This document shows, in pieces, positions 35,510 to 64,000 of a DNA stretch of 64,000 nucleotides. This DNA comes from an uncultured Candidatus Saccharibacteria bacterium (lineage in GTDB: Bacteria > Patescibacteriota > 4484-211 > JAGQKX01). The translations under genes were made by a program, and so were the position numbers. The stretch's first letter is position 1. Every line of letters starts with the position of its first letter. Where the stretch lies: positions 285,498 to 349,497 of the forward strand of contig CAYMOT010000001.1 of the NCBI GenBank assembly GCA_964392315.1, read 5' to 3'. The notes below the pieces were generated by a model, which was not told where the DNA came from, ran no database searches, and was given only the letters and a program-made list of their open reading frames with translations.

Positions 35510-35519
35510 CTATACGAAT

Positions 35520-35879: not shown

Positions 35880-35881
35880 GT

Positions 35882-36409: not shown

Positions 36410-36410
36410 T

Positions 36411-38893: not shown

Positions 38894-38915
38894 TCTGCTA
38901 GAATGCGCACTATCT

Positions 38916-39230: not shown

Positions 39231-39255
39231 GTGCATGCTGTAATGGGTACTCACT

Positions 39256-39369: not shown

Positions 39370-39387
39370 TACAATAATTTATATTTT

Positions 39388-40190: not shown

Positions 40191-40199
40191 TTTTTAACT

Positions 40200-46574: not shown

Positions 46575-46581
46575 AGGTGCC

Positions 46582-47874
46582 TTAGATAAGCGATAATTGA
46601 TTGTCTGGGTCTTTGGTATCAATCCCGGTTCGTTCCTCTTTCGAAAAGACGTGTACCTCCCCGTATAGTCCATCATAGCCTGGGGTTATCGTAATGTCTC
46701 CTGTGCGCGTTTTCTCTATTGCAGTCGCGAGTAGCGGGGAGCTGGCTTCGGCAATGTCTTGTATTGAAAGATCCATCAGAATACGGAGCTCTGGACCAAG
46801 TTTGTGTAGCAAGTCCATATACGCGCTATTGACCGTCTTAGACTGTATGCCTTTCTGTTCAACCTCGGCAATGATTTCGTTTAAAGGAATAAGGTGCATG
46901 CACCGTTCAGGGTCTTTTGCCTCTACACGGTCGGAAAGTGCCATTACCCGATTGAGTACCCCAAGCGTCAACTTTTTGTGGCAACGAGGGCATATATTAC
47001 CTAATGTTTTGCTTTCTGAGGGATGAAGTAGTACCTCACAATTGCGATGGCCGTCATAATGGTATCGTCCTTCGTGCGGATAAAACTCTGTTGTGCCAAT
47101 AAACTGAGCCCTATCTTTTGTTTTGACTGCATCCCATATCCCGTTGTATGAGATTTCTGTGTCGAATATGCAGGTTTCCCTTCCAATGCGGGGTGCAGAG
47201 TGACTATCGGATCCAGACATGAGCGCTACAGAATCAAGTGCAGACCATAAACGGTTCATCGCCGGATCGGATGACAGTCCTGTTTCAATAGCAAATATAT
47301 GGCTCGTGAGATCTCCATAACATGCTTCGAGAGAATCAAATCCCGAATTGGATCCGAATACTGCAAAGTGTGGTGTCCATGCATGGGCGGGTACCAGGTA
47401 CGCATATGGGGTAGTCTTCGTCACCATTCGTAAAAGATCCTGGCTATCAACCCCGAGTATTGGTCTACCGTCAGAGGAAAGATTACCAATCGCTCCAAGC
47501 TGCTCATTAATCGCTTCTACTATCTCAAAACTTGGTGCGTACAAAAGGTGGTGGACTTTGCGTACTTTCTCGTCTTTCGAATAAATAGTACTCACTTCAC
47601 TTTCAAGCATAAAGAACACCTCTCTATAGCACGAAGAGGGAACTTCGCTTTTTGCTGCGCGGGTTATCTCATCGGTTGGTTTGAACAAGCCATTGTTCAT
47701 AGGGATGAGATCTTTTTGCAATTCTTGCAACCAAAGAGGGTGTGTAAAATCTCCGGTTGCCATGACGGTGATTCCTTTGAGCATCGCCCATTTAGTCAAC
47801 TCTTTTATAGATAATGATTTGCTGCAAGCGTAGGCGTAGCGAGAGTGTAAATGAAGGTCGGCAGTAAAGCGCAT
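46582..47874 (-). CDS. PHP-domain nuclease, endonuclease Q-like (TIGR00375-type)
   Basis: It has the PHP metal motifs ADLHLHSRYAY and ATGDFTHPLW, plus VHHLL, SDGRP, VPAHAWTP and SGSDSHS. A central Cys cluster (HRNCEV ... ICPRCH) looks like a zinc finger, and the C-terminus reads GYDGLYGEV. The architecture matches archaeal/Bacillus EndoQ. The start is at ATG 47872-47874 (MRFTADLHLHS). Confidence 0.6.
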   Translation of the reverse strand: MRFTADLHLHSRYAYACSKSLSIKELTKWAMLKGITVMATGDFTHPLWLQELQKDLIPMNNGLFKPTDEITRAAKSEVPSSCYREVFFMLESEVSTIYSKDEKVRKVHHLLYAPSFEIVEAINEQLGAIGNLSSDGRPILGVDSQDLLRMVTKTTPYAYLVPAHAWTPHFAVFGSNSGFDSLEACYGDLTSHIFAIETGLSSDPAMNRLWSALDSVALMSGSDSHSAPRIGRETCIFDTEISYNGIWDAVKTKDRAQFIGTTEFYPHEGRYHYDGHRNCEVLLHPSESKTLGNICPRCHKKLTLGVLNRVMALSDRVEAKDPERCMHLIPLNEIIAEVEQKGIQSKTVNSAYMDLLHKLGPELRILMDLSIQDIAEASSPLLATAIEKTRTGDITITPGYDGLYGEVHVFSKEERTGIDTKDPDNQLSLI

Positions 47875-47880
47875 GTAGGC

Positions 47881-47888
47881 ATTATAAT
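47881..47888. promoter_or_regulatory. Palindromic -10 element ATTATAAT shared by the divergent EndoQ-like and methyltransferase genes
   Basis: On the minus strand a TATAAT sits 6 nt upstream of the EndoQ-like ATG (47874). On the plus strand a TATAAT (47883-47888) sits 8 nt upstream of the methyltransferase ATG (47897). Neither gene has a Shine-Dalgarno sequence. Confidence 0.4.
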
Positions 47889-47896
47889 ATGTAAAT

Positions 47897-48646
47897 ATGC
47901 AAATCAACGAATTTGCCTACCTGCGCAGGCAGGCAAATAATGACCGGTGGCAACACTCGTATCTCAACCTCAAACATCGGCGGATGCTCTTTCCTGATAA
48001 GCCGAGTGGTGCAGGAAGGCAGTTGTTAGAATTTTTAGATTCGCAGTCTGAATTTGATAAGTCTATGGCAGCGGTACTTGATATTGGGTGCGGAAATGGA
48101 AGGAATGCATTTGCTCTCGCACTGGATGGGTTTGGGCAAGTAATAGGATTTGATATCATTCCCCAAGCTATACAAGATGCAACTCAACACGCTGAAGACT
48201 CCGGTTTACAGAACGTAATGTTCACCATACACAATGTTGAAAATCCATGGCCGTTTGACAATGCAACATTTAATGTCGCCATTGACGTAAATACTTTTTC
48301 ATCTCTGTTGTCTGATGTGCGGACAATATATATTAATGAGCTTGTTCGGGTACTTGATGTGGGTGGTTACTTTTTTTTAACAACATACACCCTGCAGGAC
48401 GGCTATTACAATTCTTTCGTTGCGCATGATTCGGAGAGGCTATATCCAGGTATTGGGATAGTCTGTCCAGATGACAATATCGCACGTGTTTTGTACACAC
48501 CTGAGGAACTTAAAGAAATATTCGCTACGGTTTCAGATGGGCAATTGTCTGTTATGGGCACAAACGTTCACACGTGGTACGGCAAAATGTTTGATCGCTA
48601 TTATAAGCGAGAATTTTGTTCATTTGTTTTTAAAAAACATGAGTAA
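47897..48646 (+). CDS. Class I SAM-dependent methyltransferase
   Basis: Motif I reads VLDIGCGNGRNAFALALDGF ... VIGFDI. Confidence 0.7.
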   Translation: MQINEFAYLRRQANNDRWQHSYLNLKHRRMLFPDKPSGAGRQLLEFLDSQSEFDKSMAAVLDIGCGNGRNAFALALDGFGQVIGFDIIPQAIQDATQHAEDSGLQNVMFTIHNVENPWPFDNATFNVAIDVNTFSSLLSDVRTIYINELVRVLDVGGYFFLTTYTLQDGYYNSFVAHDSERLYPGIGIVCPDDNIARVLYTPEELKEIFATVSDGQLSVMGTNVHTWYGKMFDRYYKREFCSFVFKKHE

Positions 48647-49322
48647 TACCGGCATACGAACAAAAGTTACTAATACAACCAAATGTACTAATGGTATTCT
48701 ATTTCTGCAACTTAAAAGACCAGAGGGATTCGAGTATCAGGGAGGCCAGTTCATCGAAATACAAATCACGAAAGTTGGTGAATGGTATCCGTTTTCCCTA
48801 GCATCCTCACCTTTGGAGAGTGAGCTGTTGATAGTAACACGATTACGCGACACCGCATTCAAAAGGCAGCTTGGGTCATTGGAAATTGGCGACGAGGTTG
48901 CACTAACCGGACCATGGGGAAACTTGGTGTTACCAAAAACACTCCCTCCAAAAATCGGATTTCTGGCGGGTGGTCTTGGTATAAATCCGGTGAGGAGTAT
49001 GCTTTATGGTTTGGTGGCTGATCATAGTGACATAGTGGTTCTGCACTCAGTGCCCGACAAAGAAACAGCCCTTTTTTGGGACGAACTACATGCTTTGCCT
49101 ATTTCGTATATTCCAACATTTACAAAACGAATAGATGATAGTGTAATGCATGAACGTGGAAGGATTACTTCCTCTATGATTCATAGTCACCTGACGATAC
49201 ACCCTGAGGCGCTTATATACATCATTGGCTCTACACACTTCGTACAGAGTATGGTCGAAGAAGTGATTCGAGCGGGTTTTCACCGTGACCAACTTCGTGT
49301 TGAAACATTTACCGGTTATTAG
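48639..49322 (+). CDS. FNR-like FAD/NAD(P)-binding oxidoreductase domain protein
   Basis: An FAD-binding RxYS-like element (WYPFSLAS) is followed by a glycine-rich NAD(P)-binding segment (GFLAGGLGINPVRSM). The start is at ATG 48639, overlapping the methyltransferase stop; the track's 48471 start is a 5' over-extension. Confidence 0.5.
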   Translation: MSNTGIRTKVTNTTKCTNGILFLQLKRPEGFEYQGGQFIEIQITKVGEWYPFSLASSPLESELLIVTRLRDTAFKRQLGSLEIGDEVALTGPWGNLVLPKTLPPKIGFLAGGLGINPVRSMLYGLVADHSDIVVLHSVPDKETALFWDELHALPISYIPTFTKRIDDSVMHERGRITSSMIHSHLTIHPEALIYIIGSTHFVQSMVEEVIRAGFHRDQLRVETFTGY

Positions 49323-49383
49323 CGTCTGTTAGTACATTGCCAAGGAGAGCTGCCGGGCGTATATTTTAATAAGCACTACTCCT

Positions 49384-49761
49384 ATGCATAATGTTCTTAT
49401 CGTCGAAGATGATCGTCCAATGGCCCGCGCATTAGAGCTCAAATTAACCGAGGCTGGCCTTGCTTGTATTACTGCCTCAAATGGTAAAGAGGCTCTGGAG
49501 CGATTAGATGGATCAGATGTGGATATAATCATTTTAGATATCCTGATGCCCAAAATGAATGGGCTCAAATTTCTTGAGGAACTAGCAAAAAAAAATCTTT
49601 CAATACCCGTTATTGTAACGTCCAACCTCAGTCATGATGATGATATAAAAGAAGCGAAACGATTAGGTGCGGTAGATTACTTCATTAAAGCTGAAATAAC
49701 ATTGAATCAAATAGTAGACAAGATACAGGAAGTGCTGGGTGCCTCGACTAAGCAAGCGTAA
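49384..49761 (+). CDS. Stand-alone response-regulator receiver domain, CheY-like
   Basis: It has VLIVEDDRP ... DIIILDILMPKMNGLKF ... VIVTSN ... DYFIKA, the canonical D, D, T and K positions, and no output domain. Confidence 0.8.
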   Translation: MHNVLIVEDDRPMARALELKLTEAGLACITASNGKEALERLDGSDVDIIILDILMPKMNGLKFLEELAKKNLSIPVIVTSNLSHDDDIKEAKRLGAVDYFIKAEITLNQIVDKIQEVLGASTKQA

Positions 49762-49769
49762 CTACACCT

Positions 49770-51362
49770 ATGATACTCCAGCTCATTATCACGATCGTGC
49801 TTGGTGTTTGTATTCTGTTGATTGTCTATTTGTATACCGCAAGGCAAACTGCCCTTGCTACACTACGAGAAACGCTAATCTCTTTGACCCTGACCCAGTA
49901 TTCGCCACATGCAGCACCTCATATATTGGTGCAAACAAATAAAGACGGAGTAATTACTGAAATAAATACCGATATCAAAACAATTGGTCAATTTACTCCA
50001 TATGAGCTTATCGGTAAGAGTGTGGACATTCTTAATACGCGGTTGGATGATGCGAAATCAGATTCGATGTGGGAGACGCTCCGTACATTAGTGCCGTATC
50101 GTTTCGAAGTGTCAGGCTTTTATAAATCGAATGTGCCATTTTCGTTTTTGCTAACAATAGTACCAGTTTTAGATACAAAACATGTAGTTATTGGATATTT
50201 GGGAATACGGATTCCAGAAGCTGTTGAAAGTTCTCATTCGGAAGAGTTGTTGCACGCCTCTTCAGTTCAGACTCAGGCACATGCAGAAGCAATTATTGCG
50301 AGCATCGCTGAAGGCGTAATTGTGACCGATCAGCATGGAGATATCACCATGACCAACCAGGCGGGAAAAGAAATGTTGGGAATAACTGATAGCGAAGGAA
50401 AGTCAATCATAGAAATTTTGCCACTGGAGGATGAGCATGGCGCGATGCTCCTTCCTGAATTTCATCCCGTATATGTAGCACTGAGAGAAGCGCGTGCGGT
50501 AGTGACACATAAATATACCTACGTACGGTCAGATTTTACAAAAATGCGTCTTGCAGTGACCACCTCGCCGATATATACAGGAGGTAGTGTTATTGGTATT
50601 GTAACTGTACTGAGAGACGCAACTTTAGAAGAGCAGATCGATCGTTCAAAAACTGAGTTTGTATCTCTTGCGTCACATCAATTACGCACTCCCTTAACGG
50701 CGATTAATTGGTATACAGAACTCTTGCTGGATCAAGGGGTGGATCGCCTTACAGACGACCAGAAAAGTTTTTTGCAGCAAATTCAAGCAAGTAGTGCGAG
50801 TATGAATGAGCTCGTAAGTTCGTTGCTCAACGTCTCTCGTCTTGAATTAGGCACTTTTATCATAGAGCCAGCCCTTACTGATATTGTGCAATTAGTGGAA
50901 GAGGTTCTAGCAGAGCTCCAGGTCAAAATAGTTGAATCTGGTCATGCAGTAGAGAAGGAGTTTGATGCCACGCTGGAAGAGATTGCGGTTGATCCGAAAC
51001 TTATGCGAATTGTGGTGCAGAATTTGCTCTCCAACGCGGTCAAATATACTCCGCCACGGGGCACGGTTAAGATTCGGTTATATCGACACTATCCTGATAT
51101 GCGGTTTGAGGTAAAAGATACCGGATACGGGATACCGCAAAACCAGAAGGACAAAATATTTACAAAACTATTCCGCGCTGATAATGTGTTAGAAGAAAAC
51201 CTAGAGGGCAATGGTCTCGGGTTGTATATTGTTAAAGAAATTTTGGATCAGAGTGGTGGAGCAATTTGGTTTGAATCTCAGCAGGATAAAGGGACGACGT
51301 TCTTTGTGAGTATTCCCTTAACAGGTATGCGTAAAAAAGAGGGAACCAAAGCACTTATATAG
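49770..51362 (+). CDS. Sensor histidine kinase: N-terminal TM, PAS-like repeats, HisKA and HATPase_c
   Basis: The H-box reads SLASHQLRTPLTAINWYTELL, the N-box reads LLSNAVKYT, and the G-boxes read DTGYGIP and GNGLGLYIVKEI. Confidence 0.85.
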   Translation: MILQLIITIVLGVCILLIVYLYTARQTALATLRETLISLTLTQYSPHAAPHILVQTNKDGVITEINTDIKTIGQFTPYELIGKSVDILNTRLDDAKSDSMWETLRTLVPYRFEVSGFYKSNVPFSFLLTIVPVLDTKHVVIGYLGIRIPEAVESSHSEELLHASSVQTQAHAEAIIASIAEGVIVTDQHGDITMTNQAGKEMLGITDSEGKSIIEILPLEDEHGAMLLPEFHPVYVALREARAVVTHKYTYVRSDFTKMRLAVTTSPIYTGGSVIGIVTVLRDATLEEQIDRSKTEFVSLASHQLRTPLTAINWYTELLLDQGVDRLTDDQKSFLQQIQASSASMNELVSSLLNVSRLELGTFIIEPALTDIVQLVEEVLAELQVKIVESGHAVEKEFDATLEEIAVDPKLMRIVVQNLLSNAVKYTPPRGTVKIRLYRHYPDMRFEVKDTGYGIPQNQKDKIFTKLFRADNVLEENLEGNGLGLYIVKEILDQSGGAIWFESQQDKGTTFFVSIPLTGMRKKEGTKALI

Positions 51363-51366
51363 TTTT

Positions 51367-51750
51367 ATGACTGGCAAAAAAATTCTCATCGTTGAAGACA
51401 TGCGTCCGATTCAAGAAGCGCTTGCTGCATCCCTCGCTGATGCAGGGTATGCAGTACTAACCGCAGGGAATGGAGAGGACGGTTATGAAAAGGCGCTGGC
51501 TGAAAGACCAGATCTGCTGCTTGTTGATATTATTATGCCTAAAATGGACGGAATTGCTATGATCAAGAAACTCCGTGAGCACGAATGGGGAAAGCACGCA
51601 TATGTTATGCTTTTGACTAACCTAGATGATTCTGACAAAGTCATGGAAGCGCACGCATACAATGTGTATGATTATTTGGTAAAAGCAGATTGGCGGCTAG
51701 AAAACGTTGTTCAACGTATCAACGAACGGTTGGGAGTTGTGACGAGTTAA
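51367..51750 (+). CDS. Second stand-alone response-regulator receiver domain
   Basis: It has ILIVEDMRP ... LLLVDIIMPKMDGIAMIKKL ... VMLLTNL ... DYLVKA. It is a paralogue of the upstream receiver and shares the DI(L/I)MPKM(N/D)G block. Confidence 0.8.
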   Translation: MTGKKILIVEDMRPIQEALAASLADAGYAVLTAGNGEDGYEKALAERPDLLLVDIIMPKMDGIAMIKKLREHEWGKHAYVMLLTNLDDSDKVMEAHAYNVYDYLVKADWRLENVVQRINERLGVVTS

Positions 51751-51817
51751 ACAGAACTGTGTGGTATTTTCCCCTCGAGTTCACGTACCACTAAACTACG
51801 GTCATAGGCTATAATCA

Positions 51818-52930
51818 GTGCGTATGAAACATGTATTAATAGGTGCTTTTGGTATTGCTCTCGTTTTTATACATATAAGCACATCGTATGCTCAAGAGAA
51901 TGTACGAACCGAGTTTTTAGAGGGCGAGGTCGTATCCGTGCAAGAAGTTGCACGCGAAGAGGGTCAGCAGGTTGAAGTACCGATACAGGACTTAGGTGTT
52001 CGTATCACAAAAGGCCCTCTCCTTGATCAAACAATTACGCTTCGTTCTGATAACTATGCAGGTGTGCACGTCCCCACGTACTCTATTGGAGATTTATTGG
52101 TTATCCGGTATGAAGTAAACGAGAGCGGTGTTCCGACATTCCAAATACAAGATTTTGTCCGTAGGACGCCGATGGTTTGGCTACTTGTGCTTTTCTTGAT
52201 TCTTTCGATCATTATAGGAGGGAAGCATGGCGTACGCTCTTTGGTCAGCCTCGGGATATCATTTCTTATAATTGTTCTGTTTATCCTGCCGCAAATTGGG
52301 GCAGGAAGAAATCCAGCATTTATTGCAATAGTGGGGGGGACAGGCATTGCGCTCCTATCGTTTTACGTTTCTCATGGTGTCAATAAAAAGACAACAGCAG
52401 CTATTGTAGGAACTATGTTTTCGTTTATTGTGACCGCTTTAATCTCCCAAGTCTTTATCAGTTGGGCACACTTAAGCGGGTTCTCGGCAGACGAAAGTTT
52501 GTTTTTACAAATTGCCAAGGGCGATTTGGTCAATATACAAGGGCTTGTGCTTGCAAGCATTATTATCGGTGCGCTCGGTGTTCTTGACGATGTAACAATA
52601 TCTCAAGCTTCAATAGTACAAGAGCTTAAGTATGCAGATCCATCCCTCACCGGAAGCCAGCTGTTCATCAGAGCAATGCGTGTAGGACGAGACCACATCG
52701 CCTCACTGATTAACACCTTGGTCCTGGTGTATACCGCAGGTGCATTACCATTGTTATTACTGTATATCGATAGTTCTATTTCGTTTTCACAATTTATAAA
52801 TTATGAAATCGTGGCAGAAGAAGTAATTAGAACCCTTGCGGCAAGCATTGGATTGATTCTTGCGGTTCCCTTAACAACCCTCATTGCGGTTCGTTATGTT
52901 AATGCGGAAAAAGAGATCCACCGTCGGTAG
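51818..52930 (+). CDS. YibE/F-like integral membrane protein
   Basis: A signal peptide-like N-terminus is followed by a roughly 100-aa soluble region and then 6-7 TM helices, an architecture typical of the YibE/F family. Confidence 0.4.
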   Translation: MRMKHVLIGAFGIALVFIHISTSYAQENVRTEFLEGEVVSVQEVAREEGQQVEVPIQDLGVRITKGPLLDQTITLRSDNYAGVHVPTYSIGDLLVIRYEVNESGVPTFQIQDFVRRTPMVWLLVLFLILSIIIGGKHGVRSLVSLGISFLIIVLFILPQIGAGRNPAFIAIVGGTGIALLSFYVSHGVNKKTTAAIVGTMFSFIVTALISQVFISWAHLSGFSADESLFLQIAKGDLVNIQGLVLASIIIGALGVLDDVTISQASIVQELKYADPSLTGSQLFIRAMRVGRDHIASLINTLVLVYTAGALPLLLLYIDSSISFSQFINYEIVAEEVIRTLAASIGLILAVPLTTLIAVRYVNAEKEIHRR

Positions 52931-52948
52931 TTTCTAAAAAACATCACA

Positions 52949-53365
52949 TTACTCAATAAGACCGTCCTTGATCAATTTGGGAATAATGCTATTTTTTAGA
53001 ATATTGCCGATGGGTACGGAATCCATATTTTTTGAATTTAGCCAGAACTCACTTTCAATTTCACCGTCGCTATAAATCAAGGGTTGCTGTTCCCAGTTTT
53101 TTATTAGATATGTGTGCATGTGTACCGTTCGGTCTGTGAAACCAATTGCGCTATCTGCGTGTACACCGTATTCTTCAAGGTTTTCTTGCGACAATTGCAA
53201 ATTAAGTTCCTCTTGAAGTCCTCGCACCAATGCCTCTTTTGGATCTTCTCCTTGCTCTATTACGCCGCCAGGTATGAGAAAGGCATCACGATCAATTGGT
53301 TTAACAACCAGTAATTGTTTGTCTTTTATCAGAAGTCCGCCAGCATTATAAAAATCTTGGCTCAT
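52949..53365 (-). CDS. NUDIX hydrolase
   Basis: The Nudix box reads GGVIEQGEDPKEALVRGLQEELNL. The track ORF (to 53437) overlaps tRNA-Pro, so the start was moved to ATG 53363-53365. Confidence 0.75.
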   Translation of the reverse strand: MSQDFYNAGGLLIKDKQLLVVKPIDRDAFLIPGGVIEQGEDPKEALVRGLQEELNLQLSQENLEEYGVHADSAIGFTDRTVHMHTYLIKNWEQQPLIYSDGEIESEFWLNSKNMDSVPIGNILKNSIIPKLIKDGLIE

Positions 53366-53392
53366 AATGGAGTGAGCAATCAATTCTGTTTT

Positions 53393-53468
53393 TGGTCGGG
53401 GTGACAGGACTTGAACCTGCGACCTCCAGTACCCCATACTGGCGCGCTAGCCAACTGCGCCACACCCC
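53393..53468 (-). tRNA. tRNA-Pro (anticodon GGG)
   Basis: The reverse complement reads CGGGGTGTGGCGCAGTTGGCTAGCGCGCCAGTATGGGGTACTGGAGGTCGCAGGTTCAAGTCCTGTCACCCCGACCA. It folds as a cloverleaf with an anticodon loop AUGGGGU, a GTTCAAG T-loop, discriminator A and an encoded CCA. Confidence 0.85.
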
Positions 53469-53628
53469 GATAGTAATAGTCAAATAGTACTAATAAACAA
53501 ATAATCAAATCTACAAATCAATGTTTTGATAGAGATTATAGCAATTATTCTTGGTAGAAACCAAAATGCCCCGGGGTAGACATATGTCAGTATATATATC
53601 CCCTTGTAATGTATGCTACAATCGCTAC

Positions 53629-54705
53629 ATGCCGAAAGAGACTTCTGCGACCAATGGCAAGAGCGAAGCGGTAAAACTCGCGATTGATCAAATAGAAAAA
53701 CAGTTTGGCAAAGGTGCAATTATGCGGCTTGGTGAGGAAGGCAAGCGGGAGCAGATAGAAGCGATTCCCACGGGATCCATAGCGTTAGACTTGGCGCTTG
53801 GTGTGGGTGGTGTACCACGGGGACGTATTATCGAAATCTTTGGTCCCGAAAGTAGCGGAAAAACTACTTTGGCACTTCACGTTGTTGCAGAAGCTCAGCG
53901 AATGGGGGGAATTGCAGCATTTATTGACGCTGAACATGCACTCGATCCGGTGTATGCGGGAAAGATTGGGGTCAATGTTGATGAGCTCCTTCTCTCGCAA
54001 CCTGATACTGGAGAACAGGCTTTGGAAATTGCTGAGACCCTGGTTCGTTCGGGTGCTGTTGATATCATTATTGTTGATTCGGTTGCTGCGCTTGTGCCAC
54101 GTGCAGAGATTGAAGGTGAAATGGGTGATAGTCATGTAGGTCTGCAGGCTCGTCTTATGAGCCAGGCACTGCGTAAGCTCACCGGAGTAATAAATCGCTC
54201 GCATACAACCGTCATTTTCATTAACCAATTGCGCTTAAAAATCGGGGTTATGTTTGGCAATCCAGAAACAACACCTGGAGGATTAGCGCTTAAATTTTAT
54301 GCCTCTGTTCGCATGGATATCCGTCGCAAGGCTGCGCTCAAAGACGGAGAAGAGACTGTGGGTAATAGGCATGTCGTAAAAGTAGTGAAAAATAAGGTTG
54401 CACCGCCATTTCGCCAGGCGGAATTTGATATTATGTATGGTGAGGGCATTTCAGGAGAGGGAAGTCTTATTGATGTGGGTGTTGAGCTTGGGGTGGTTGA
54501 TAAATCAGGTAGTTGGTACGCGTATAAAAACGAAAAGATTGGACAGGGGCGTCTTGGTGCACTGGAGTTTCTCAAAGAAAATAAAAAAGTAGCCAATAGT
54601 ATACAACAGGACATCATGAAGAAAATGAAGGAAGGTAATACACCGCTAGAACTTGGAGAGACAAAAGAAGCAAATAATGTAGAAATGGCTATAGAAGAAC
54701 AGTGA
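53629..54705 (+). CDS. recA: Recombinase RecA
   Basis: It has Walker [10 protein letters not shown], plus ALDPVYA and VIFINQLR, and the N-terminus reads [20 protein letters not shown]. The track start 53551 adds 26 non-RecA residues; ATG 53629 is preferred. A TGcTACAAT -10 ends 6 nt upstream of it. Confidence 0.93.
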
Positions 54706-54712
54706 TGTACTT

Positions 54713-55351
54713 GTGCCCGTTGTTACCAATATCCTTCCACAAAAAAAGGACCCTTCCCGTTTTAATGTGTATATAGATGATGAATTTGCGTTTGGCCTTT
54801 CTCAAATTTCACTGGCCAACCTAGGTCTAGCAATAGGAAAACAACTTACCCCAACGGAACTCGAACAGGTAAGAAGTGAAAAGGAGTTTGATATGCTTTT
54901 GCAAAAAGCAATAACCTATCTCTCATATAGGCCACGTTCGACACGAGAGCTCATAACACGCTTGTCTCAAAAAATACCTACAGCACAAAAAGAAAAAATA
55001 CAAAGCGTCGCTGATTACTTATTGGAAAAGCACTATCTTGATGACAAAGCATTTGCTGAGTGGTGGGTAAGACAACGAAGAGAATTAGGTAAACGCTTTG
55101 GCAAGCATCGGATACGTCAAGAACTGAGAGCAAAGGGTATTTCCGAGGAGTATATAGAGACTGCGTTGCAAAATTCGGAAGAGGATAATGATGAAAGCGA
55201 AATCGCCTATGAAGAAGCATTGAAGATCTGTAAACGAGTGAAAGAAAAAGATACGCAAATTGTGAGAAATAAGTGCATACAAACACTGGTCCGGCGAGGG
55301 TTTAGCTGGGATATAGCGCGCACCGCGGCCACAAGGGTCTTGAGTGAGTAG
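54713..55351 (+). CDS. recX: RecA regulator RecX
   Basis: A three-repeat helical protein (FNVYIDDEFAFGL ... AITYLSYRPRSTRELITRL ... AEWWVRQRR) located directly downstream of recA. Confidence 0.8.
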   Translation: MPVVTNILPQKKDPSRFNVYIDDEFAFGLSQISLANLGLAIGKQLTPTELEQVRSEKEFDMLLQKAITYLSYRPRSTRELITRLSQKIPTAQKEKIQSVADYLLEKHYLDDKAFAEWWVRQRRELGKRFGKHRIRQELRAKGISEEYIETALQNSEEDNDESEIAYEEALKICKRVKEKDTQIVRNKCIQTLVRRGFSWDIARTAATRVLSE

Positions 55352-55472
55352 TGTAGTTGTATATTAACGTTTTGATTGATACAATAGGTTAACTATGTTG
55401 AGCAGTATTACTACTCGTGTACGGTTAATAACAAAAGAACTGTCCAATCGCGTGGTAACCTGTGGATAAGTA

Positions 55473-56906
55473 ATGATTTTTGATACATCTCCACAAGACA
55501 CAGATCAGACATCTGATCCAACCCTACAGCCCCAAAACGATACACCAACCCTATCTACAACCATTGTTGATACCGATGCAAAAGCGGTGCTTCTTGAGGC
55601 GAAATCACAAGCACTTGCAATGAAAGAAGAAGCGGAGCGTGAGGCGCATGGTATTCGAGAACGTGCTCAACAGAAAGAGAGTGAAGTCAATCGGTTGCAA
55701 GAACGTCTGCAGGAGCGCCTTCGTGAAATCGATGAGTTAAGGGGTACGCTGCTTAAAGATATCGAGAAGACACATTCTCTCAGTAGAAGTGAGGCTGAAG
55801 AAACATATCTCGCACAACTTGATGAAGAATTAAAGCAAGAATCAGCGCGACGGATTAAAGAGAATGAGGATCGCATAAAGGCAGAGTCCGAAAAGCGTGC
55901 ACGAAGCATATTAGTTACCGCTCTTCAGCGTGTGACGTTGGATCACGTTTCTGAACTAACAACTGCTGTTGTTAAACTCCCAAATGAAGCAATGGTTGGT
56001 CCAATTATTGGTAAAGAAGGGCGGAATATTAAAGCATTTGAACAGGCTACGGGTGTGAATGTTGAAATTGGTGAAACCCCTGGTGTGATCACCTTGTCGT
56101 CTATTGACCCTGTCCGGCGCGAGATTGCACGCCGGTCTCTTGAGCAGTTGATTGCTGATGGTCGAATCCAACCTGCACGTATTGAAGAAGTCGTCTTGAA
56201 GATGCGTTCGCAGATGGATGAGGAACTGATCAAAGAGGGAGAGCAGCATGCACTTGATGCAAAGGTTGCCGGTTTGCCGGAAGAGATTATTCGTCTCTTG
56301 GGTCGTCTCAAGTACCGCACCTCTTATGGGCAAAATATGCATGCGCATAATCTCGAAGTAGTAAATATTGGGAGAATGCTTGCAGCAGAATTAGGCGCAA
56401 ACGTTGAAGTTGTCAAAAAAGCATGTCTTTTGCACGATATAGGAAAAGCAGTAACGAGTGAGGTTGAGGGAGGACACGCAGAAGTTGGAGCTGAAATTTG
56501 TAGACGGTATGGAGTTGAAGAAGAGGTTGTTGTTGCCTTTGAAGGACACCATACTGATAATTTGCCAACTATTGAGGCTGTTATTGTATACCTCGCTGAT
56601 GCAATCTCAGGTGCACGTCCTGGCGCTCGTAGAGAAGACTATGAGGCCTATATTGAGCGAATCAAGGAACTTGAATCAATCGCTGAAGCGTTTCGCGGTG
56701 TAGAGAAAGCGTATGCGATTTCCGCGGGGAGAGAAGTTCGCGTCATAGTGAAGCCAGCGGAGATTGGAGATGCAGATATGGTTCGTTTAGCACATGACAT
56801 CAGTCGCAAGGTTAGCGAACAAGTGCAAAATTTTCCGGGACAAATTAAGATAAATGTTATTCGGGAGCTGCGCGCACATGCGTATGCACAACCAAAAAGC
56901 ACTTAG
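55473..56906 (+). CDS. rny: Ribonuclease Y with KH and HD domains. No N-terminal TM helix is evident.
   Basis: A coiled-coil N-terminus is followed by a KH domain (VGPIIGKEGRNIKAFEQATGVNVEI) and an HD domain (LLHDIGKA ... HH). Confidence 0.85.
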   Translation: MIFDTSPQDTDQTSDPTLQPQNDTPTLSTTIVDTDAKAVLLEAKSQALAMKEEAEREAHGIRERAQQKESEVNRLQERLQERLREIDELRGTLLKDIEKTHSLSRSEAEETYLAQLDEELKQESARRIKENEDRIKAESEKRARSILVTALQRVTLDHVSELTTAVVKLPNEAMVGPIIGKEGRNIKAFEQATGVNVEIGETPGVITLSSIDPVRREIARRSLEQLIADGRIQPARIEEVVLKMRSQMDEELIKEGEQHALDAKVAGLPEEIIRLLGRLKYRTSYGQNMHAHNLEVVNIGRMLAAELGANVEVVKKACLLHDIGKAVTSEVEGGHAEVGAEICRRYGVEEEVVVAFEGHHTDNLPTIEAVIVYLADAISGARPGARREDYEAYIERIKELESIAEAFRGVEKAYAISAGREVRVIVKPAEIGDADMVRLAHDISRKVSEQVQNFPGQIKINVIRELRAHAYAQPKST

Positions 56907-56985
56907 CAGTGCAATTACCAATTTCCAATAACTCAAAGTTTGCCAAGCTTTGGTTTTTGAGTAATTAAAGATTGCACACTTCTCT

Positions 56986-57774
56986 ATGAATCTTCTTTTC
57001 GTTGGTGATATTGTCAGTCGTCCTGGCCGTACTACCGTAAAATCTTTACTCCCGTCCCTTCGAGATGAATATGCTATCGATGTTGTAGTAGCAAATGCTG
57101 AAAATCTATCGGGAGGACGTGGCGTTACGATTGAGACACTCGACGAAATGTTGCAGGCTGGTGTCGATTATTTTACTTCAGGGGACCACATTTTTTGGGG
57201 AGAAGACTTTGCTACTATTCTGGAAGACGAAGGAATGCGCATTCTCCGACCCGCCAACCTTCCTACAGATATACCAGGACGTGGGTACACTGTACTGGAC
57301 ACCGGCCAGTTTAAGCTTGGCATAATTAACCTCATAGGACATACTACCGAACAACTAGATACTGTTTCATTAGATATTTTTCGGACAGTTGATGGTATCC
57401 TGGACGAGATTGGTACAGGCTTTCCTATAATGATTGATATTCACGCTGAATACACATCAGAAAAACAGGCATTGGCTCAGTACGTCGCTGGGAGAGTTAG
57501 TGCTGTTTTTGGAACGCATACACACGTAGGTACAATCGATACTGAGATTCTTCTAGACAAGACCGGTAAAGTTACCGATGCGGGAATGGTGGGTGCTATA
57601 GACTCTGTACTTGGTGTTGAAACAGACATCATTATTAACAAACAAAAGTATCCGTACCCGCAACGTTTTGAGTGGGTAAAGTCCGGCAAATCAAGGTTTA
57701 ATGCTGTGTTGGCAACAATTGACGAAAACGGTACATGCACATCAATTACCCGAGTTGATCGCGTAAATCCTTGA
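56986..57774 (+). CDS. ymdB: YmdB-like metallophosphoesterase (2',3'-cyclic-nucleotide phosphodiesterase, TIGR00282 family)
   Basis: It has LLFVGDIVSRPGR ... VVANAENLSGGRG ... DIHAEYTSEKQAL ... GTHTHVGT, and it is adjacent to rny as in Bacillus. Confidence 0.8.
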   Translation: MNLLFVGDIVSRPGRTTVKSLLPSLRDEYAIDVVVANAENLSGGRGVTIETLDEMLQAGVDYFTSGDHIFWGEDFATILEDEGMRILRPANLPTDIPGRGYTVLDTGQFKLGIINLIGHTTEQLDTVSLDIFRTVDGILDEIGTGFPIMIDIHAEYTSEKQALAQYVAGRVSAVFGTHTHVGTIDTEILLDKTGKVTDAGMVGAIDSVLGVETDIIINKQKYPYPQRFEWVKSGKSRFNAVLATIDENGTCTSITRVDRVNP

Positions 57775-57797
57775 CACTGTCAGGTTTGCGTGATAAT
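57771..57797 (+). promoter_or_regulatory. Candidate promoter for hup: TTGACA, 15-nt spacer, GATAAT
   Basis: ttgaca at 57771-57776 overlaps the ymdB stop, and gataat lies at 57792-57797. A strong GAGGGGGGG ribosome-binding site precedes the hup ATG. Confidence 0.3.
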
Positions 57798-57860
57798 CTC
57801 GTCTTCGATACAGTATGTCGTGTAAAAAATTATTTACTGTACACTTTAACCTGAGGGGGG

Positions 57861-58145
57861 GTGAGTCCACACATGACTAAGCAAATGCTCATAGAAGAAT
57901 TGGCTGGCCGTGCTGACTTAACAAAGCGTGCTGCTGGTGATGCGCTCAATGCATTACTCGATATCGTAACTGAAGCAATGGCACGTGGTGAGAAAGTTAC
58001 TTTAACTGGCTTTGGAACTTTCCTTGTAAGAAAGCGAGCAGCTCGCATGGGCCGCAACCCTCAAACGGGAGAACCTTTGCACATTCCTGCACAGGCAACC
58101 CCAGCTTTCCGAGCGGGTTCTGCGCTCAAAGAGTCAGTGAGATAA
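57861..58145 (+). CDS. hup: DNA-binding protein HU
   Basis: It has MTKQMLIEELA ... FGTFLVRKRAARMGRNPQTGEPLHIPA, the HU/IHF arm. Confidence 0.92.
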   Translation: MSPHMTKQMLIEELAGRADLTKRAAGDALNALLDIVTEAMARGEKVTLTGFGTFLVRKRAARMGRNPQTGEPLHIPAQATPAFRAGSALKESVR

Positions 58146-58315
58146 GTCACTGTGTGACATCCCGGATTGTGCAACGGGATACGTTACTATCCCCCGCACC
58201 TTCTCATGGGAGTTATCTATGCCAGGCAGGTTCGATATATTCGAAACTTTTTGACTAGATAGAACCTATAAGAAGGTGCGGGGTTCTTGTATAACCTATC
58301 GATCGCACCTGAAGT

Positions 58316-59275
58316 ATGGCATCTCCAAAGCTTATTACTATCGTTGGTCCAACTGGTACAGGAAAAACAGCGCTTGCATTAACCCTCGCAAAGAAACTTA
58401 ATACCGAAATTATTTCTGCAGATTCAAGACAGGTATATAAAGACGCACATATTGGGACAAACAAACTACCCACTACCACAAAAGAATTATCAGTACAAAA
58501 AGGCGAAGGCTATTGGAACATTGATGGTGTGTACGTGCATCTCTACGATGTTGTTTTTCCACATGAAGCATTTGCCGTGGGAGAGTTTGTGAAGCTGGCG
58601 AGTGCGCTCTGCACAAAGCTCTGGAATGAAGGTCGAATTCCAATTATAGCTGGTGGTACAGGATTTTATATAGATGCTCTAACAGGTCGCCGAACTTTTA
58701 GTGCTGCTCCACAGTTAAAGGATAAAAGGCGTGAGTGGATCAATTATAGTAACGACTCATTACTCGCAGAATTGAAGAAAAAAGATCCATATTTTGTAGA
58801 AAGTATGCACTATGCCGATACGCAAAATAAGCAACGTTTGCTGAGGTATTTGGAACTTGCTGTCTATGCAGGGTCGGTATTAAGGGCGTCTGAAAGCACT
58901 CCGTTGCCCGATGATATGCATACCTTGTGGGTAGGGTTGACTGCTGATCGTAGAGAATTACACCAAAGGGCAGATGAGTGGGTCAATTCGTTGTTTTGGA
59001 GAGGCATAGTACGGGAAACGCAAGCACTTGTAGAAAAAGGGTATAAGGACACACCACTCATGCAGGGAATGATATACAAACAAGTGGTGCAATTTTTAGA
59101 GGGAACACATACCGCTACAGAGACACTTACACAAATACAGACATACATGCATGCATATATTCGGCGTCAATTAGTATGGTTTCGTCGGAATACCGAGATT
59201 AATTGGTTTGATGTGTCAAAGCCTTCGTATAGTAAAGATCTGATGCACTTGGTAGAATTATTTGTAGAACGATAG
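58316..59275 (+). CDS. miaA: tRNA dimethylallyltransferase MiaA
   Basis: It has a P-loop (IVGPTGTGKTALAL), followed by ISADSRQVYKD and IAGGTGFYIDAL. Confidence 0.9.
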   Translation: MASPKLITIVGPTGTGKTALALTLAKKLNTEIISADSRQVYKDAHIGTNKLPTTTKELSVQKGEGYWNIDGVYVHLYDVVFPHEAFAVGEFVKLASALCTKLWNEGRIPIIAGGTGFYIDALTGRRTFSAAPQLKDKRREWINYSNDSLLAELKKKDPYFVESMHYADTQNKQRLLRYLELAVYAGSVLRASESTPLPDDMHTLWVGLTADRRELHQRADEWVNSLFWRGIVRETQALVEKGYKDTPLMQGMIYKQVVQFLEGTHTATETLTQIQTYMHAYIRRQLVWFRRNTEINWFDVSKPSYSKDLMHLVELFVER

Positions 59276-59283
59276 TTTGAATT

Positions 59284-60300
59284 ATGTTGTCCGATCCGAT
59301 TAAAAATACCATACGAACCACATTGACTGTTTGCGCAGTCGCGGTAGGACTCCTTTTACTCTATCAGCTAAGAGATATTGTAATCCTTCTTTTTATTGCT
59401 TTTATTATCGCTTCGGCGTTTCGGCCTATTGTTCTAAGATTAGATACTTTTAATGCACCTAAGTGGGTGAATATTCTTGCGGTGTACGTAGTTTTTTTCT
59501 GCCTTATCGTGCTTATTCTGGGAGGATTAATACCGTTGGTCTTGGAGCAGGTGCGTATTTTTATCCAAGGGTTACCAGCTATTCTAGCCGAATTTACGCA
59601 ATTATTGCCCCTGCAGGAAATTGCTGGTGCCATTGACCTCCGAGCAGTGGTTTCAGATCTTTTCCAATCCTTTTCAGCTGAATTAATTACCACACCTTCA
59701 AATGTTTTTAATGTAATTGCAGATGCCTTTAGTAGTTTATTTACCATTTTTATGGTGATTATGTTCTCGTATTACTTACTTCTTGAGCATGATAGGATAA
59801 AAAATAAATTTTTAGTTCTGCTTTCCAAAAAGGATCGAGATATTGCGATTGACATAATTAATCGTGCGGAGGAAAAGTTAGGAGCATGGCTCCGTGGACA
59901 GGTTGTTGTGATGCTTCTAATCGGTTTGCTGACATTTATAGGGTTACTTATATTACGTGTAAATTTCGCGTTACCCCTTGCGATTATCGCCGGTCTTTTA
60001 GAAATCATTCCGTTATTTGGTCCGGTTGTGGGGATGGTACCGGCATTGATCGTGGCAGTTACCCAATCACCTTGGCACGCTCTTGGTGTCTTTGTTTTGT
60101 ATATCTTGGTGCAGCAGATTGGTGGTGTTGCAATAACGCCTAAAGTGATGAATAAGGCGGTGGGTGTTGATCCGCTTATCATCATACTGTCAATTATGGT
60201 AGGGGGAAGATTAGCAGGCACGGCAGGTGTGTTGCTTGCGATACCAGTTGCGGCAGTACTTTCAATATTGCTAGAAGAGTTACACACAAGAAAGACCTAA
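59284..60300 (+). CDS. AI-2E family transporter (PerM/UPF0118)
   Basis: It has 7-8 TM helices and a conserved C-terminal block (IPLFGPVVGMVPALIVAV ... IGGVAITPKVM). Confidence 0.7.
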   Translation: MLSDPIKNTIRTTLTVCAVAVGLLLLYQLRDIVILLFIAFIIASAFRPIVLRLDTFNAPKWVNILAVYVVFFCLIVLILGGLIPLVLEQVRIFIQGLPAILAEFTQLLPLQEIAGAIDLRAVVSDLFQSFSAELITTPSNVFNVIADAFSSLFTIFMVIMFSYYLLLEHDRIKNKFLVLLSKKDRDIAIDIINRAEEKLGAWLRGQVVVMLLIGLLTFIGLLILRVNFALPLAIIAGLLEIIPLFGPVVGMVPALIVAVTQSPWHALGVFVLYILVQQIGGVAITPKVMNKAVGVDPLIIILSIMVGGRLAGTAGVLLAIPVAAVLSILLEELHTRKT

Positions 60301-60302
60301 TT

Positions 60303-61130
60303 TCACGATCGAACATCAAAACGATAAACTTTTTTCTCCGGCTCGGCCTGGATCCTGACATCGTTGGAGCTCGCCTTTGTCATCAATAGTTGTTTTTCCA
60401 ATTGTTGTAATTCTTTTTTATTTTTCATCATTTGGTGCAATAGCAGAACAAACAGTACAAGCAATATACCTAATAGTATCACTATTCCCCATATACTCGA
60501 CTGAAGCATTGTGAGTGCAGCAGGAATGGGGGTTGGCGTTACGACTGTGTGTTGGGTTGTTGCTTCTCCGAGCGTGTTTCCCGTTTGTTGTTGATACACC
60601 ACCGGAGGGACAATATACAACGGTTGTTGGTACACCGGTTGATAATAGGGTGGTGTTTGTTGAGTATACGTGTTTTGAGGATATGTCTGAGCATATGGAT
60701 TCACGTAGGGAGTTGGTGTTGGAGTCATGGTTAATTGTCCAAATGTTCCGAGGTCATCTTCAAACGTAAAAGAGAGAGTAGAAAACCGTTGAACATCACT
60801 GGTCACGGACTCACCGCTTTCAGTAGTGGATGTTACCTTAAAAAGGTATGTGGTAGCAGGGCGTAATTTTGTCACGGTAATCGCATGATAGGTATTATAT
60901 TCGATGCTTGCGGGGGATTTGAGCGCATCTGCGGAACTTTCTCCATAACTTATTTGGCTATTTGTAGGGACATCTGTGCGCCATGCAATTGTTACAGAGG
61001 TGTATCCGATATTCCTTATTTCGGTGTTTGTAATCACCGGTTGCGCAAATACGCTTTTTGTATCCAGGAGCGCAAGGAATGCGAGCGTTAGGCTGAAGAG
61101 GAGGATTCTTTGCAGGGACAGTTTGTGCAT
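60303..61130 (-). CDS. Secreted/membrane protein: signal peptide, FN3-like domain, Tyr/Gln/Pro-rich low-complexity segment and a C-terminal TM helix
   Basis: The signal peptide reads MHKLSLQRILLFSLTLAFLALL and the FN3-like block reads YTSVTIAWRTDVPTNSQISYG ... TTYLFKVTS. The low-complexity segment reads PYAQTYPQNTYTQQTPPYYQPVYQQPLY. A TM helix (IWGIVILLGILLVLFVLLL) is followed by a charged tail. Confidence 0.4.
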   Translation of the reverse strand: MHKLSLQRILLFSLTLAFLALLDTKSVFAQPVITNTEIRNIGYTSVTIAWRTDVPTNSQISYGESSADALKSPASIEYNTYHAITVTKLRPATTYLFKVTSTTESGESVTSDVQRFSTLSFTFEDDLGTFGQLTMTPTPTPYVNPYAQTYPQNTYTQQTPPYYQPVYQQPLYIVPPVVYQQQTGNTLGEATTQHTVVTPTPIPAALTMLQSSIWGIVILLGILLVLFVLLLHQMMKNKKELQQLEKQLLMTKASSNDVRIQAEPEKKVYRFDVRS

Positions 61131-61196
61131 AGTTATCTTAAATTATATCCTACAGGGATATTTTGTATAGTGCAATTCTAGCTGTTATTACGCCAA

Positions 61197-61205
61197 ATGA
61201 TATAA
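61197..61205 (+). promoter_or_regulatory. Extended -10 element TGaTATAAT, 7 nt upstream of the RNase P RNA 5' end
   Basis: tgatataat spans 61197-61205, and the predicted RNA 5' end (the P1 helix) starts near 61213. Confidence 0.4.
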
Positions 61206-61212
61206 TTAGCAT

Positions 61213-61545
61213 ACTGGGAGAAAGGATGGCTGCCTCTGACGTAAGTTGGGGGAGGAAAGTCCAGACTACATAGAGCAAGGGGTTGGGGTGTAAGCCCTGA
61301 GCGGTAACGCCTGGTGGTCTATGAGCGAAAGCAATTAGACACAGAACATGAAATGACATGCTCTGAGACCCACAGTGACGAACTTTGGCTGTCTCCTGTT
61401 TCAGGAATGCCAAAGCAGTGAAACGTTGGGAATCCCACCCGTAGCAACTTCCGAACGTCACGTACGCTGCTCGCGGAGTGACAAAGTCGAAGGCATAGAT
61501 AGATGGCCATCGTAAAACAGAATCTGGCTTACTCTTCTCCCAGTG
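61213..61545 (+). ncRNA. rnpB: RNase P RNA, bacterial type A
   Basis: P1 pairs CTGGGAGAA at the 5' end with TTCTCCCAG at the 3' end. The P4 strands read GGAAAGTCC and ACAGAATCTGGCTTA. GGTAACGCCTGG and GCAAT ... ACAGAACAT elements are present. The ends are approximate to about 5 nt. Confidence 0.8.
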
Positions 61546-61649
61546 AGGACTATAACCAAAAACACCTAAATAAATCTAAATAAGCCTGTTACGTATAGGA
61601 CGCTTTAGTAAATTTGTAATACGTATATATTACCTGATATACTGAATAA

Positions 61650-63191: not shown

Positions 63192-63205
63192 CGCCTTGCT
63201 GAATA

Positions 63206-63784
63206 TTGGTGTACTCTGTAAATACCATGGATGAAGTCTCTTCTTTGAGTACAGGCATCAACCTTGTCCCGCAAAAAACAAAAAAACCGCAACAAGTGCG
63301 CCATGCCATTGTTGTAGCCGTTTCTGTAACGAGATATATTCTTTTGGGATTAGGAGGAGTATGTCTTATCCTTCTTGGTTATCAATCGATATTGTCTAAG
63401 CAATTGGCTGGAAAAGTCCAAGCCATGAACCAAGATATTGTGTATATCAAAGCGCAAGACGAATTTCAGCAAGATTTTCAGCAATTGCAAACATACATGC
63501 AGGAACTTGGCACTACCCATGCACAACTTGATGTCCAAGCAAATACGTTTGCGTTGTTAGAGCAGATAACGCCACAAGTTATCACGCTAACAAACTTAAC
63601 CTTTGACTTAGGTGAGGTTCGGATTGCGGCAACAACGACCGAATACCCAGCTATAGCGGACTATTTTGTTCAGCTTTCCCAGTCTGATATTTTCGAGAAT
63701 GTTGAGATTGTAAATATTGCTCGGCCTGATGAGGAAGATGGGGAGGCACCCATTCAATTTACTATTTCTGCTGATAGAAGATAA
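63206..63784 (+). CDS. PilN-like type IV pilus/competence assembly protein
   Basis: An N-terminal INLVP motif (the PilN INLLP signature) is followed by a single TM helix (ILLGLGGVCLILLGY) and a coiled-coil periplasmic part. Confidence 0.5.
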   Translation: MVYSVNTMDEVSSLSTGINLVPQKTKKPQQVRHAIVVAVSVTRYILLGLGGVCLILLGYQSILSKQLAGKVQAMNQDIVYIKAQDEFQQDFQQLQTYMQELGTTHAQLDVQANTFALLEQITPQVITLTNLTFDLGEVRIAATTTEYPAIADYFVQLSQSDIFENVEIVNIARPDEEDGEAPIQFTISADRR

Positions 63785-63793
63785 GGTATATCT

Positions 63794-64000
63794 ATGAAAT
63801 TGTCACGTAAAAAGCAATTCCAAGAGTTTGTCCATGATCCAACAAATCTTCGGACAATTGAACTTGTAGTAGTTAGTATACTAATACTCCTCATTACTGT
63901 AGTCGTTGGGGTACCTACTATATCAGATATCATGCAATTACGAGATGATTTGAAGCAAGCGAATGTTCTTCAGGCAGGCCTTTCCCAGAAACGTACAAAC
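63794..64000 (+). CDS. PilO-like protein, N-terminal part only; the 3' end lies outside the window
   Basis: ATG 63794 begins MKLSRKKQFQEF ... a TM helix (LVVVSILILLITVVVGV) then a coiled coil. It sits downstream of the pilN-like gene. Confidence 0.35.
   Translation, partial: MKLSRKKQFQEFVHDPTNLRTIELVVVSILILLITVVVGVPTISDIMQLRDDLKQANVLQAGLSQKRTN

Follow-up and report, generated by a model that had tools for sequence, protein, structure and literature searches.

There is ample documentation of leaderless translation initiation for Actinobacteria, Deinococcus and archaea. Bacteria of the candidate phyla radiation (CPR), or Patescibacteria, have reduced ribosomes. Symmetric bidirectional promoters, in which the -10 elements of the two strands overlap, occur in E. 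coli and other bacteria. In the genome groups defined with GeneMarkS-2, group C is characterized by a Pribnow box located about 6–10 nucleotides (nt) upstream of the genes that come first in operons; this arrangement is found in 25–50% of operons and is typical of Actinobacteria and Deinococcus-Thermus (PMC6028130). The group C genomes that use genetic code 11 are reported to be almost all high-GC (bioRxiv 10.1101/2022.07.25.500264). The motif of group B (Bacteroidota), which is not a promoter, precedes first genes and internal genes without distinction (PMC6028130). The literature searched yielded no account of leaderless genes from CPR, Patescibacteria or candidate division WWE3. In this study, we analyzed a 64-kb stretch (hereafter, the window) of the genome of an uncultured bacterium (contig CAYMOT010000001.1, positions 285,498 to 349,497) and compared it with about 130 kb from relatives. 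In this window, a -10 box, in several cases extended by an upstream TGn, lies shortly before the start codons of recA, comM and other genes that have no Shine-Dalgarno (SD) sequence. We estimate at roughly three in four the probability that many mRNAs of this organism are leaderless or have leaders of 2–5 nt and are produced from -10 or extended -10 promoters, with both the site where transcription starts and the way in which translation is initiated being read from the DNA sequence.

The initial annotation of the window had proposed that recA, comM, alaS, rpsL and infA each have a -10 box, often extended as TGnTAnAAT, just upstream of the start codon. All five combinations of box, spacer and start codon are present on the + strand, as follows. 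The recA box TGCTACAAT (TGcTACAAT, 53614–53622) is followed by the 6-nt spacer cgctac and the ATG at 53629, and it is the sole + strand hexamer that agrees with the consensus at 5 or more of 6 positions in the approximately 120 nt upstream of the gene. The comM/yifB box TGATATACT (TGaTATACT, 61635–61643) is followed by 6 nt and a GTG at 61650. The box of alaS is a TATAAT (7010–7015) located 9 nt before the ATG at 7025, and that of rpsL is a TATAAT (20203–20208) that begins 3 nt after the rpoC stop codon, is located 9 nt before the ATG at 20218 and is unchanged in six contigs of the same species. The infA box TGCTAGAAT (TGcTAGAAT, 38896–38904) lies just past the stop codon of a map-like gene and 11 nt before the ATG at 38916. 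The description of the box as often extended holds for recA, infA and comM and not for the other two genes: at rpsL, the TG at 20201–20202 adjoins the hexamer directly and is not a correctly spaced TGn extension, and the TATAAT of alaS also has no spaced TG. A second, properly extended box TGATAGAAT (TGaTAGAAT, 6986–6994, +) is found 30 nt upstream of alaS.

The gene identities given in the initial annotation proved correct, as judged from matches to NCBIfam families. The coding sequences are those of recA (53629–54705, 358 amino acids (aa); TIGR02012, 559 bits, residues 11–330 against model positions 2–320), a comM/YifB-family ATPase (61650–63191, 513 aa; TIGR00368, 595 bits, residues 6–509 against model positions 2–499), a short, 636-aa form of alaS (7025–8935; NF002436, 664 bits, residues 8–633 against model positions 5–593), rpsL (20218–20631; TIGR00981, residues 1–136 against model positions 1–123) and infA (38916–39155; TIGR00008, 63.7 bits), all on the + strand. 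Because the models for all five proteins align from profile position 1–5, the proposed starts yield normal N-termini.

With curated starts, 17 of the 70 genes in the window, about a quarter, have a strong -10 box 5–12 nt upstream of the start codon. Beyond the five named genes, these are two divergent pairs (four genes), an ABC-F gene, a YibE/F-like gene, the minus-strand genes starting at 28345 and 61130, and rpsE, secY, rpsM and rpsD. Sixteen of the 17 start with ATG, as expected for leaderless initiation, the exception being comM. The exact hexamer TATAAT occurs 42 times on the two strands of the window, and 10 of these copies precede the start ATG of a real gene by 6–11 nt. It is found 5–12 nt upstream of 8 of the 67 start ATGs, compared with 7 of the 2133 other ATGs (odds ratio 41, p=2.6e-9). 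When a looser motif was used, namely a hexamer that agrees with TATAAT at 5 or more of its 6 positions, A2 and T6 among them, the corresponding counts were 14 of 67 and 84 of 2133 (p=7e-7). A positional profile was made with a naive start rule, in which the first ATG of each of the 70 reading frames was taken as the start; it gave 17 looser-motif hexamers at 6–12 nt, compared with 21 in the 48-position stretch between 13 and 60 nt (Poisson p=3e-8).

The upstream regions are AT-rich (65%, compared with 56.5% window-wide), and the hexamers near starts might be functionless by-products of AT-rich intergenic DNA and of TAA stop codons contained in TATAAT. In line with this explanation, the boxes of rpsD and of the genes at 47897, 51824, 61130 and 28345 contain the in-frame stop codon of the preceding reading frame, and the looser motif is just moderately significant when start ATGs are compared with AT-matched ATGs (p=0.01). 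However, the profile drops about fivefold beyond 12 nt within the same regions, and dinucleotide shuffles of positions -40 to -1 yielded 4.7 +/- 2.0 boxed genes, with a maximum of 13 in 1000 shuffles, compared with 15 observed. The odds ratio obtained with the exact hexamer also argues against such an origin, as do the relatives described below, in which the box and its spacing are kept while the spacer varies and the spacing peaks sharply at 6 nt. We consider a purely compositional origin very improbable. The absence of enrichment over an AT-matched background had been named in the initial annotation as one outcome that would refute its claim, and the enrichment persists in both the AT-matched and the shuffled comparison.

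Placement of the organism in candidate division WWE3 (Katanobacteria, CPR) is based only on the names of the nearest RecA and S12 proteins, both of which come from this division. The uS5 gene (35882–36409) is followed after 1 nt by the uL15 gene (36411–36842) with no uL30 gene, and the loss of uL30 is a CPR trait (PMC9297842). We compared the DNA upstream of recA in seven relatives (L087–L093). In six genomes with RecA identities of 78–100% (the window, L087, L088, L093, L089 and L090), recA is preceded by TGnTACAAT and exactly 6 nt before the ATG, and the 6-nt spacers are all different (cgctac, tctgac, ccttcc, cggctc, cagttt and ccgtac; alignment A1). In L092 (71% identity), recA has TATAAT, 6 nt and ATG, with TTGACT 16 nt upstream of the box. 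Likewise, the comM arrangement of TGnTATACT and 6 nt is kept in the window, L089 and L093, the latter two having TGgTATACT followed by 6 nt and an ATG in place of the GTG, and alaS in a further relative (L176) has TGaTATAAT, 6 nt and ATG. Ten related loci with 125 called genes contain 34 genes boxed at 5–12 nt, with a sharp peak at 6 nt (13 cases). Two starts in this set, those of L087 recA and L093 comM, were moved by hand, and the orthologues of recA and of comM within it are not independent. In these loci, 35 hexamers were found at 5–12 nt, compared with 53 over 13–60 nt (p=2e-11), and 17 of the 35 have TGn.

The region upstream of recA contains another conserved element. The block GTAGACATATAT(nn)AC(n)TATATA, located at 53576–53599 in the window and about 33 nt upstream of the recA box, is kept in five WWE3 genomes (the window, L087, L088, L090 and L093), and its copy in the window includes the palindrome GACATATGTC. 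The block is too far upstream to be a -35 element; it may be the site of a regulator, such as a LexA/SOS box.

We then considered where in transcription units the boxes are located, a unit start being defined by an opposite-strand neighbor or a gap of at least 50 nt. A box was found at 12 of 29 unit-start genes compared with 5 of 41 internal genes; when rpsM was moved to the internal class in view of the rpmJ gene upstream (39256–39369), the counts were 11 of 28 and 6 of 43 (p=0.02). The consensus of the boxes is TAnAAT with invariant A2 and T6 and without an A-rich run. A TGn extension is present on 5 of 19 start-proximal hexamers, compared with 40 of 599 hexamers window-wide (p=0.007), and correctly spaced extensions are found at recA, infA, comM, secY, the ABC-F gene and rnpB. 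The last of these, which encodes RNase P RNA, had served in the initial annotation as a non-coding control whose 5' end was predicted to lie 7 nt after TGaTATAAT. This prediction agrees with a match to RF00010 at 61214–61547 (+; 90.6 bits, E=3e-28, model positions 1–367), which places model position 1 at 7 nt past the box TGATATAAT (TGaTATAAT, 61198–61206, +), the sole copy of this sequence in the window. The score of the match is below the Rfam gathering score of 100, so that a default scan misses the gene, whereas an E-value threshold recovers it; at the gathering threshold, only two tRNAs were found by Rfam in the window. Several helices are shortened in the RNase P RNA alignment.

SD sequences were called from the energy of the duplex formed with the anti-SD CACCUCCUUU, with -6 kcal/mol or stronger being regarded as a clear SD. 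The duplex energies of the five named genes range from -1.9 to +2.0 kcal/mol, whereas those of tuf, hup, the ytxH-like gene (start 2634) and the gene at 26581 are -11.8, -14.6, -8.4 and -15.2 kcal/mol, respectively, in agreement with the earlier statement that the former lack an SD and that tuf, hup and the ytxH-like gene have one. A clear SD was found at none of the 17 boxed genes and at 10 of the 70 genes overall, all of them unboxed; within this window, the -10 box and the SD are mutually exclusive. Strong GGAGGTGA-type SD sequences are present at tuf, hup and 26581 in the window and at hup, atpE and other genes in the relatives, so the anti-SD is evidently functional in the lineage. Neither signal, SD or -10 box, is present at the majority of operon-internal genes (36 of 41), among them rpsG, fusA and many genes for ribosomal proteins. 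The intergenic gaps in the str, S10 and spc gene cluster (20631–36842) are typically 1–20 nt, and the gene arrangement suggests that the operon-internal genes without a signal are translated by coupling or another SD-independent route. As an outgroup, we used loci L094–L173 from a scan of metagenome contigs with the RpoC C-terminus, in which the matches, with identities of 49% or less, were from high-GC organisms. In about 50 of these unrelated loci, rpsL has a GGAG/GGAGG-type SD and often a GTG or TTG start, in contrast to the TATAAT and ATG of rpsL in the window.

A different interpretation of the box is that it acts on the ribosome: the TA-rich hexamer would be a non-SD ribosome-binding element or an unstructured enhancer element, of the group B (Bacteroidota) type, in leadered mRNAs whose transcription starts further upstream. 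The rarity of SD sequences, the AT-rich upstream regions, the presence of five to six operon-internal genes among the boxed ones and the lack of enrichment of a full -35/-10 consensus (see below) would all be compatible with such an element. However, a group B motif is expected before first and internal genes alike (PMC6028130), whereas 36 of the 41 internal genes here have no box. Moreover, TGn, which is read by RNA polymerase and not by the ribosome, is enriched 4- to 7-fold, and non-coding rnpB has the same box at the same distance. The invariant A2 and T6 of the consensus, in place of an A-rich run, and the absence of a second -10-like hexamer from the 159-bp region upstream of recA also argue for a promoter. 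We thus regard a ribosome-directed role of the hexamer as improbable.

The motif, spacing, enrichment, SD exclusivity and conservation observed here would be accounted for by promoters of the sigma-70 type that depend on the -10 hexamer, are frequently extended by TGn and usually lack a recognizable -35. Transcription would begin at the start codon when the spacing is 6–8 nt, or 2–5 nt before it when the spacing is 9–12 nt; with a 6-nt spacer, the A of AUG is the seventh base past the box and occupies the canonical start position. An mRNA made in this way would have neither a 5' leader nor an SD and hence would be translated by the leaderless route, in which the ribosome and initiator tRNA bind the 5'-terminal AUG directly. 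Approximately 40% of the genes leading transcription units in the window, including recA, comM, alaS and the two divergent pairs, would be built in this way, while a minority (tuf, hup and others) depends on a strong SD of the GGAGGTGA type and coupling presumably serves most operon-internal genes. The enrichment of the box, its bias toward unit starts, the TGn extension, the lack of co-occurrence with an SD, the rnpB spacing and the conservation at recA and comM lend inferential support to the claim of the initial annotation that leaderless initiation is widely used in this organism.

Several observations weigh against this reading. The spacings of 9–12 nt at rpsL, alaS, infA, secY, rpsM and two other genes place the ATG past the usual start window and thus point to very short leaders instead of none, and transcription from the second, extended box of alaS would produce an SD-less leader of about 23 nt. 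In the more distant WWE3 genome L091 (69% identity), recA is leadered, with GGAG, a TATAAT located 40 nt upstream of the ATG and a leader of about 30–40 nt. The recA gene of a Saccharibacteria locus (L022), which came from a scan of genome contigs with RecA in which the relatives among the matches listed were at most 71% identical and belonged to many phyla, is also leadered and has an SD. Furthermore, a scan of positions 44001–64000 for the full -35/-10 consensus gave 27 sites compared with 43 +/- 8 in shuffled sequences and picked up only the promoters of 61130 (-) and comM among the boxed genes. Because the full consensus is not enriched, a canonical two-hexamer promoter model was dropped and the boxes were taken as -10 or extended -10 promoters; by the same token, the promoter assignment depends on the -10 region alone. 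On the side of a promoter, L092 recA and L176 fusA each have a -35 of the TTGACT/TTGACA type at a distance of 16 nt. Among the points against, finally, rpsL and infA start just 17–22 nt downstream of the gene before them, and five to six boxed genes are operon-internal when about 1.5–3 are expected by chance. The two closest relatives examined at the rpsL locus have no box there, their rpsL genes starting 10 nt (L174) or 1 nt (L175) after the rpoC stop codon.

These last observations also bear on a narrower interpretation, according to which recA, comM, alaS and the divergent pairs do have this architecture, while the boxes of rpsL, infA, secY, rpsD, rpsE and rpsM are fortuitous and these genes are translated from long polycistronic mRNAs by coupling or re-initiation. 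All six genes start 1–22 nt after the preceding gene, the unboxed rpsL genes of L174 and L175 are as this interpretation would have them, and chance would give about 1.5–3 internal boxes, compared with the five to six observed. On the other hand, rpsL, infA and rpsM stand at classical operon boundaries, matching those of the str and alpha operons of E. coli, and infA and secY have a correctly spaced TGn. In L176, where rpsL follows rnj, TGgTACAAT is located 10 nt upstream of rpsL, and a promoter-like TATAAT is also found between infA and rpmJ. We give this narrower interpretation a considerable chance, somewhat below even. In terms of leaderless expression of individual genes, our confidence is high for recA and comM, fair for alaS and the two divergent pairs, moderate for infA, and low to moderate for rpsL and the other operon-internal cases. 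The TATAAT between infA and rpmJ (window 39224–39258) lies 26 nt upstream of the rpmJ start codon (ATG 39256) and may act as an internal promoter for a leadered transcript within this cluster of ribosomal protein genes.

The spacing between the -10 box and the ATG had also been put forward as a means of correcting start-site calls, with the recA start being moved from 53551 to 53629. The move itself is well founded: the RecA N-termini of relatives (MAKD.../MAKE...) fit a start at 53629 and not longer forms. The upstream candidates at 53551, 53566 and 53584 were rejected, as the N-terminal extension is not conserved and the relatives have in-frame stop codons there. In L089, L090, L092 and L093, there is no other in-frame recA start between the nearest upstream stop codon and the ATG, and in L090 and L093 an in-frame TGA is located inside the box, so that the ATG after the box is the sole possible RecA start in these genomes. 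As a general correction, however, the rule is not new, and the corrected starts were already present in public calls. GeneMarkS-2 also places starts by the promoter box, and the exact 358-aa RecA (P0001), 513-aa ComM and 636-aa AlaS are in a public NCBI-derived protein set, so the practical gain for the window is small. Another caller gave a 379-aa RecA (P0002). In L093 (8210–8310), an automatic call of a 545-aa comM reaches back over the rnpB 3' end; by the -10 rule and the orthologues, the start is ATGCTTGCC, located some 30 codons further downstream. Elsewhere in the window, the first-ATG starts of a divergent pair at 44143 (-) and 44133 (+) overlap by 11 nt, and the minus-strand gene of this pair has an alternative ATG at 44053, which is 7 nt after a TACAAT.

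The other boxed genes include the two divergent pairs. In one pair, the 8-bp palindrome ATTATAAT (47881–47888), which contains TATAAT on both strands, is located 6 nt from the ATG at 47874 of an EndoQ-like gene (-) and 8 nt from the ATG at 47897 of a methyltransferase gene (+), the start codons being 23 bp apart. The palindrome looks like a symmetric bidirectional promoter serving two leaderless genes. A hairpin with a 12-bp stem, ATTTGCCTGCCTGCGCAGGTAGGCAAAT (47911–47938), lies within the first 15 codons of the methyltransferase gene and was flagged as terminator-like on the minus strand. In the other pair (4075–4096), two TATAAT boxes stand back to back, the one at 4075–4080 (-) being 6 nt from the ATG at 4068 and the one at 4091–4096 (+) being 7 nt from the ATG at 4104. 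On the + strand, TGcTATTAT (25068–25076) is 7 nt upstream of the ATG of the ABC-F gene (25084), and TATAAT (51810–51815) is 8 nt upstream of that of the YibE/F-like gene (51824). On the - strand, TATAAT (28357–28362) is 11 nt upstream of the ATG at 28345 of a gene encoding a 153-aa protein, and TATAAT (61142–61147), preceded by TATACA at a 16-nt spacing, is 11 nt upstream of the ATG at 61130 of a gene for an fn3/purple-acid-phosphatase-N protein.

The remaining boxes, all on the + strand, are found in the ribosomal protein cluster. TGgTACAAT (36824–36832) lies within the end of rplO and 11 nt upstream of the secY ATG (36844); its location is operon-internal and its function is uncertain. TACAAT (35869–35874) lies within the end of rplR and 7 nt upstream of the rpsE ATG (35882), is likewise operon-internal, and may have arisen by chance. 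TACAAT (39370–39375) directly follows the rpmJ stop codon and is 12 nt upstream of the rpsM ATG (39388), and the operon-internal TATAAT at 40186–40191, which includes the stop codon of the preceding gene, is 8 nt upstream of the rpsD ATG (40200).

Taken further, these results might indicate that WWE3, and perhaps other CPR lineages whose ribosomes are reduced, form a moderate-GC, code-11 group dominated by SD-independent initiation. In such a group, about 40% of transcription units would be leaderless, among them core genes of recombination and of tRNA charging and possibly those of IF1 and ribosomal proteins. An SD would be retained by only about 15% of genes, and most operon-internal genes would be devoid of a signal. 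We advance this generalization tentatively and think it more probably wrong than right in its full extent. If it is true, leaderless initiation of the 70S type would be a main mode of translation in an uncultivated radiation for which it is so far undescribed, and SD-based gene callers would bias CPR start calls systematically, with the 379-aa RecA and the 545-aa ComM that extends into rnpB as examples. If the transcription starts are confirmed, the promoter grammar and the gene starts of WWE3 could be read straight from sequence, a rule would be at hand for mending mis-called starts in metagenome bins, and a lineage of moderate GC content and genetic code 11 would join a class described as almost entirely high-GC.

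Compared with the known systems, the arrangement in the window resembles that of group B in its low use of SD sequences. It differs from group B in that the motif is biased to the starts of transcription units, bears TGn and precedes rnpB. The boxes also resemble the extended -10 promoters (TGnTATAAT) of E. coli and Gram-positive bacteria, in which a weak or missing -35 goes together with a TG placed one base ahead of the hexamer, as is the case here for recA, infA, comM, secY, the ABC-F gene and rnpB. In the window, however, the promoter adjoins the start codon and would therefore fix the 5' end of the coding mRNA, and the TATAAT boxes of rpsL and alaS have no spaced TG. The palindrome ATTATAAT corresponds to symmetric bidirectional promoters in providing a -10 element on both strands of a divergent pair, with the difference that both transcripts here would be leaderless coding mRNAs.

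The closest likeness is to group C, represented by Mycobacterium tuberculosis, Streptomyces, Deinococcus-Thermus and some Mycoplasma. In both cases, a Pribnow or TAnnnT box stands 6–10 nt before first genes without an SD, some of the other genes have an SD, and the share estimated here, about 40% of transcription units, lies inside the 25–50% reported for that group. The differences are that the organism belongs to WWE3 (Katanobacteria, CPR), has a GC content of 43–45% and uses genetic code 11, that the TGn-extended -10 is very frequent, that most operon-internal genes also lack an SD, and that the system is known here from sequence alone. The window thus appears to bear a known signature of leaderless expression in a group of bacteria for which it is apparently undescribed.

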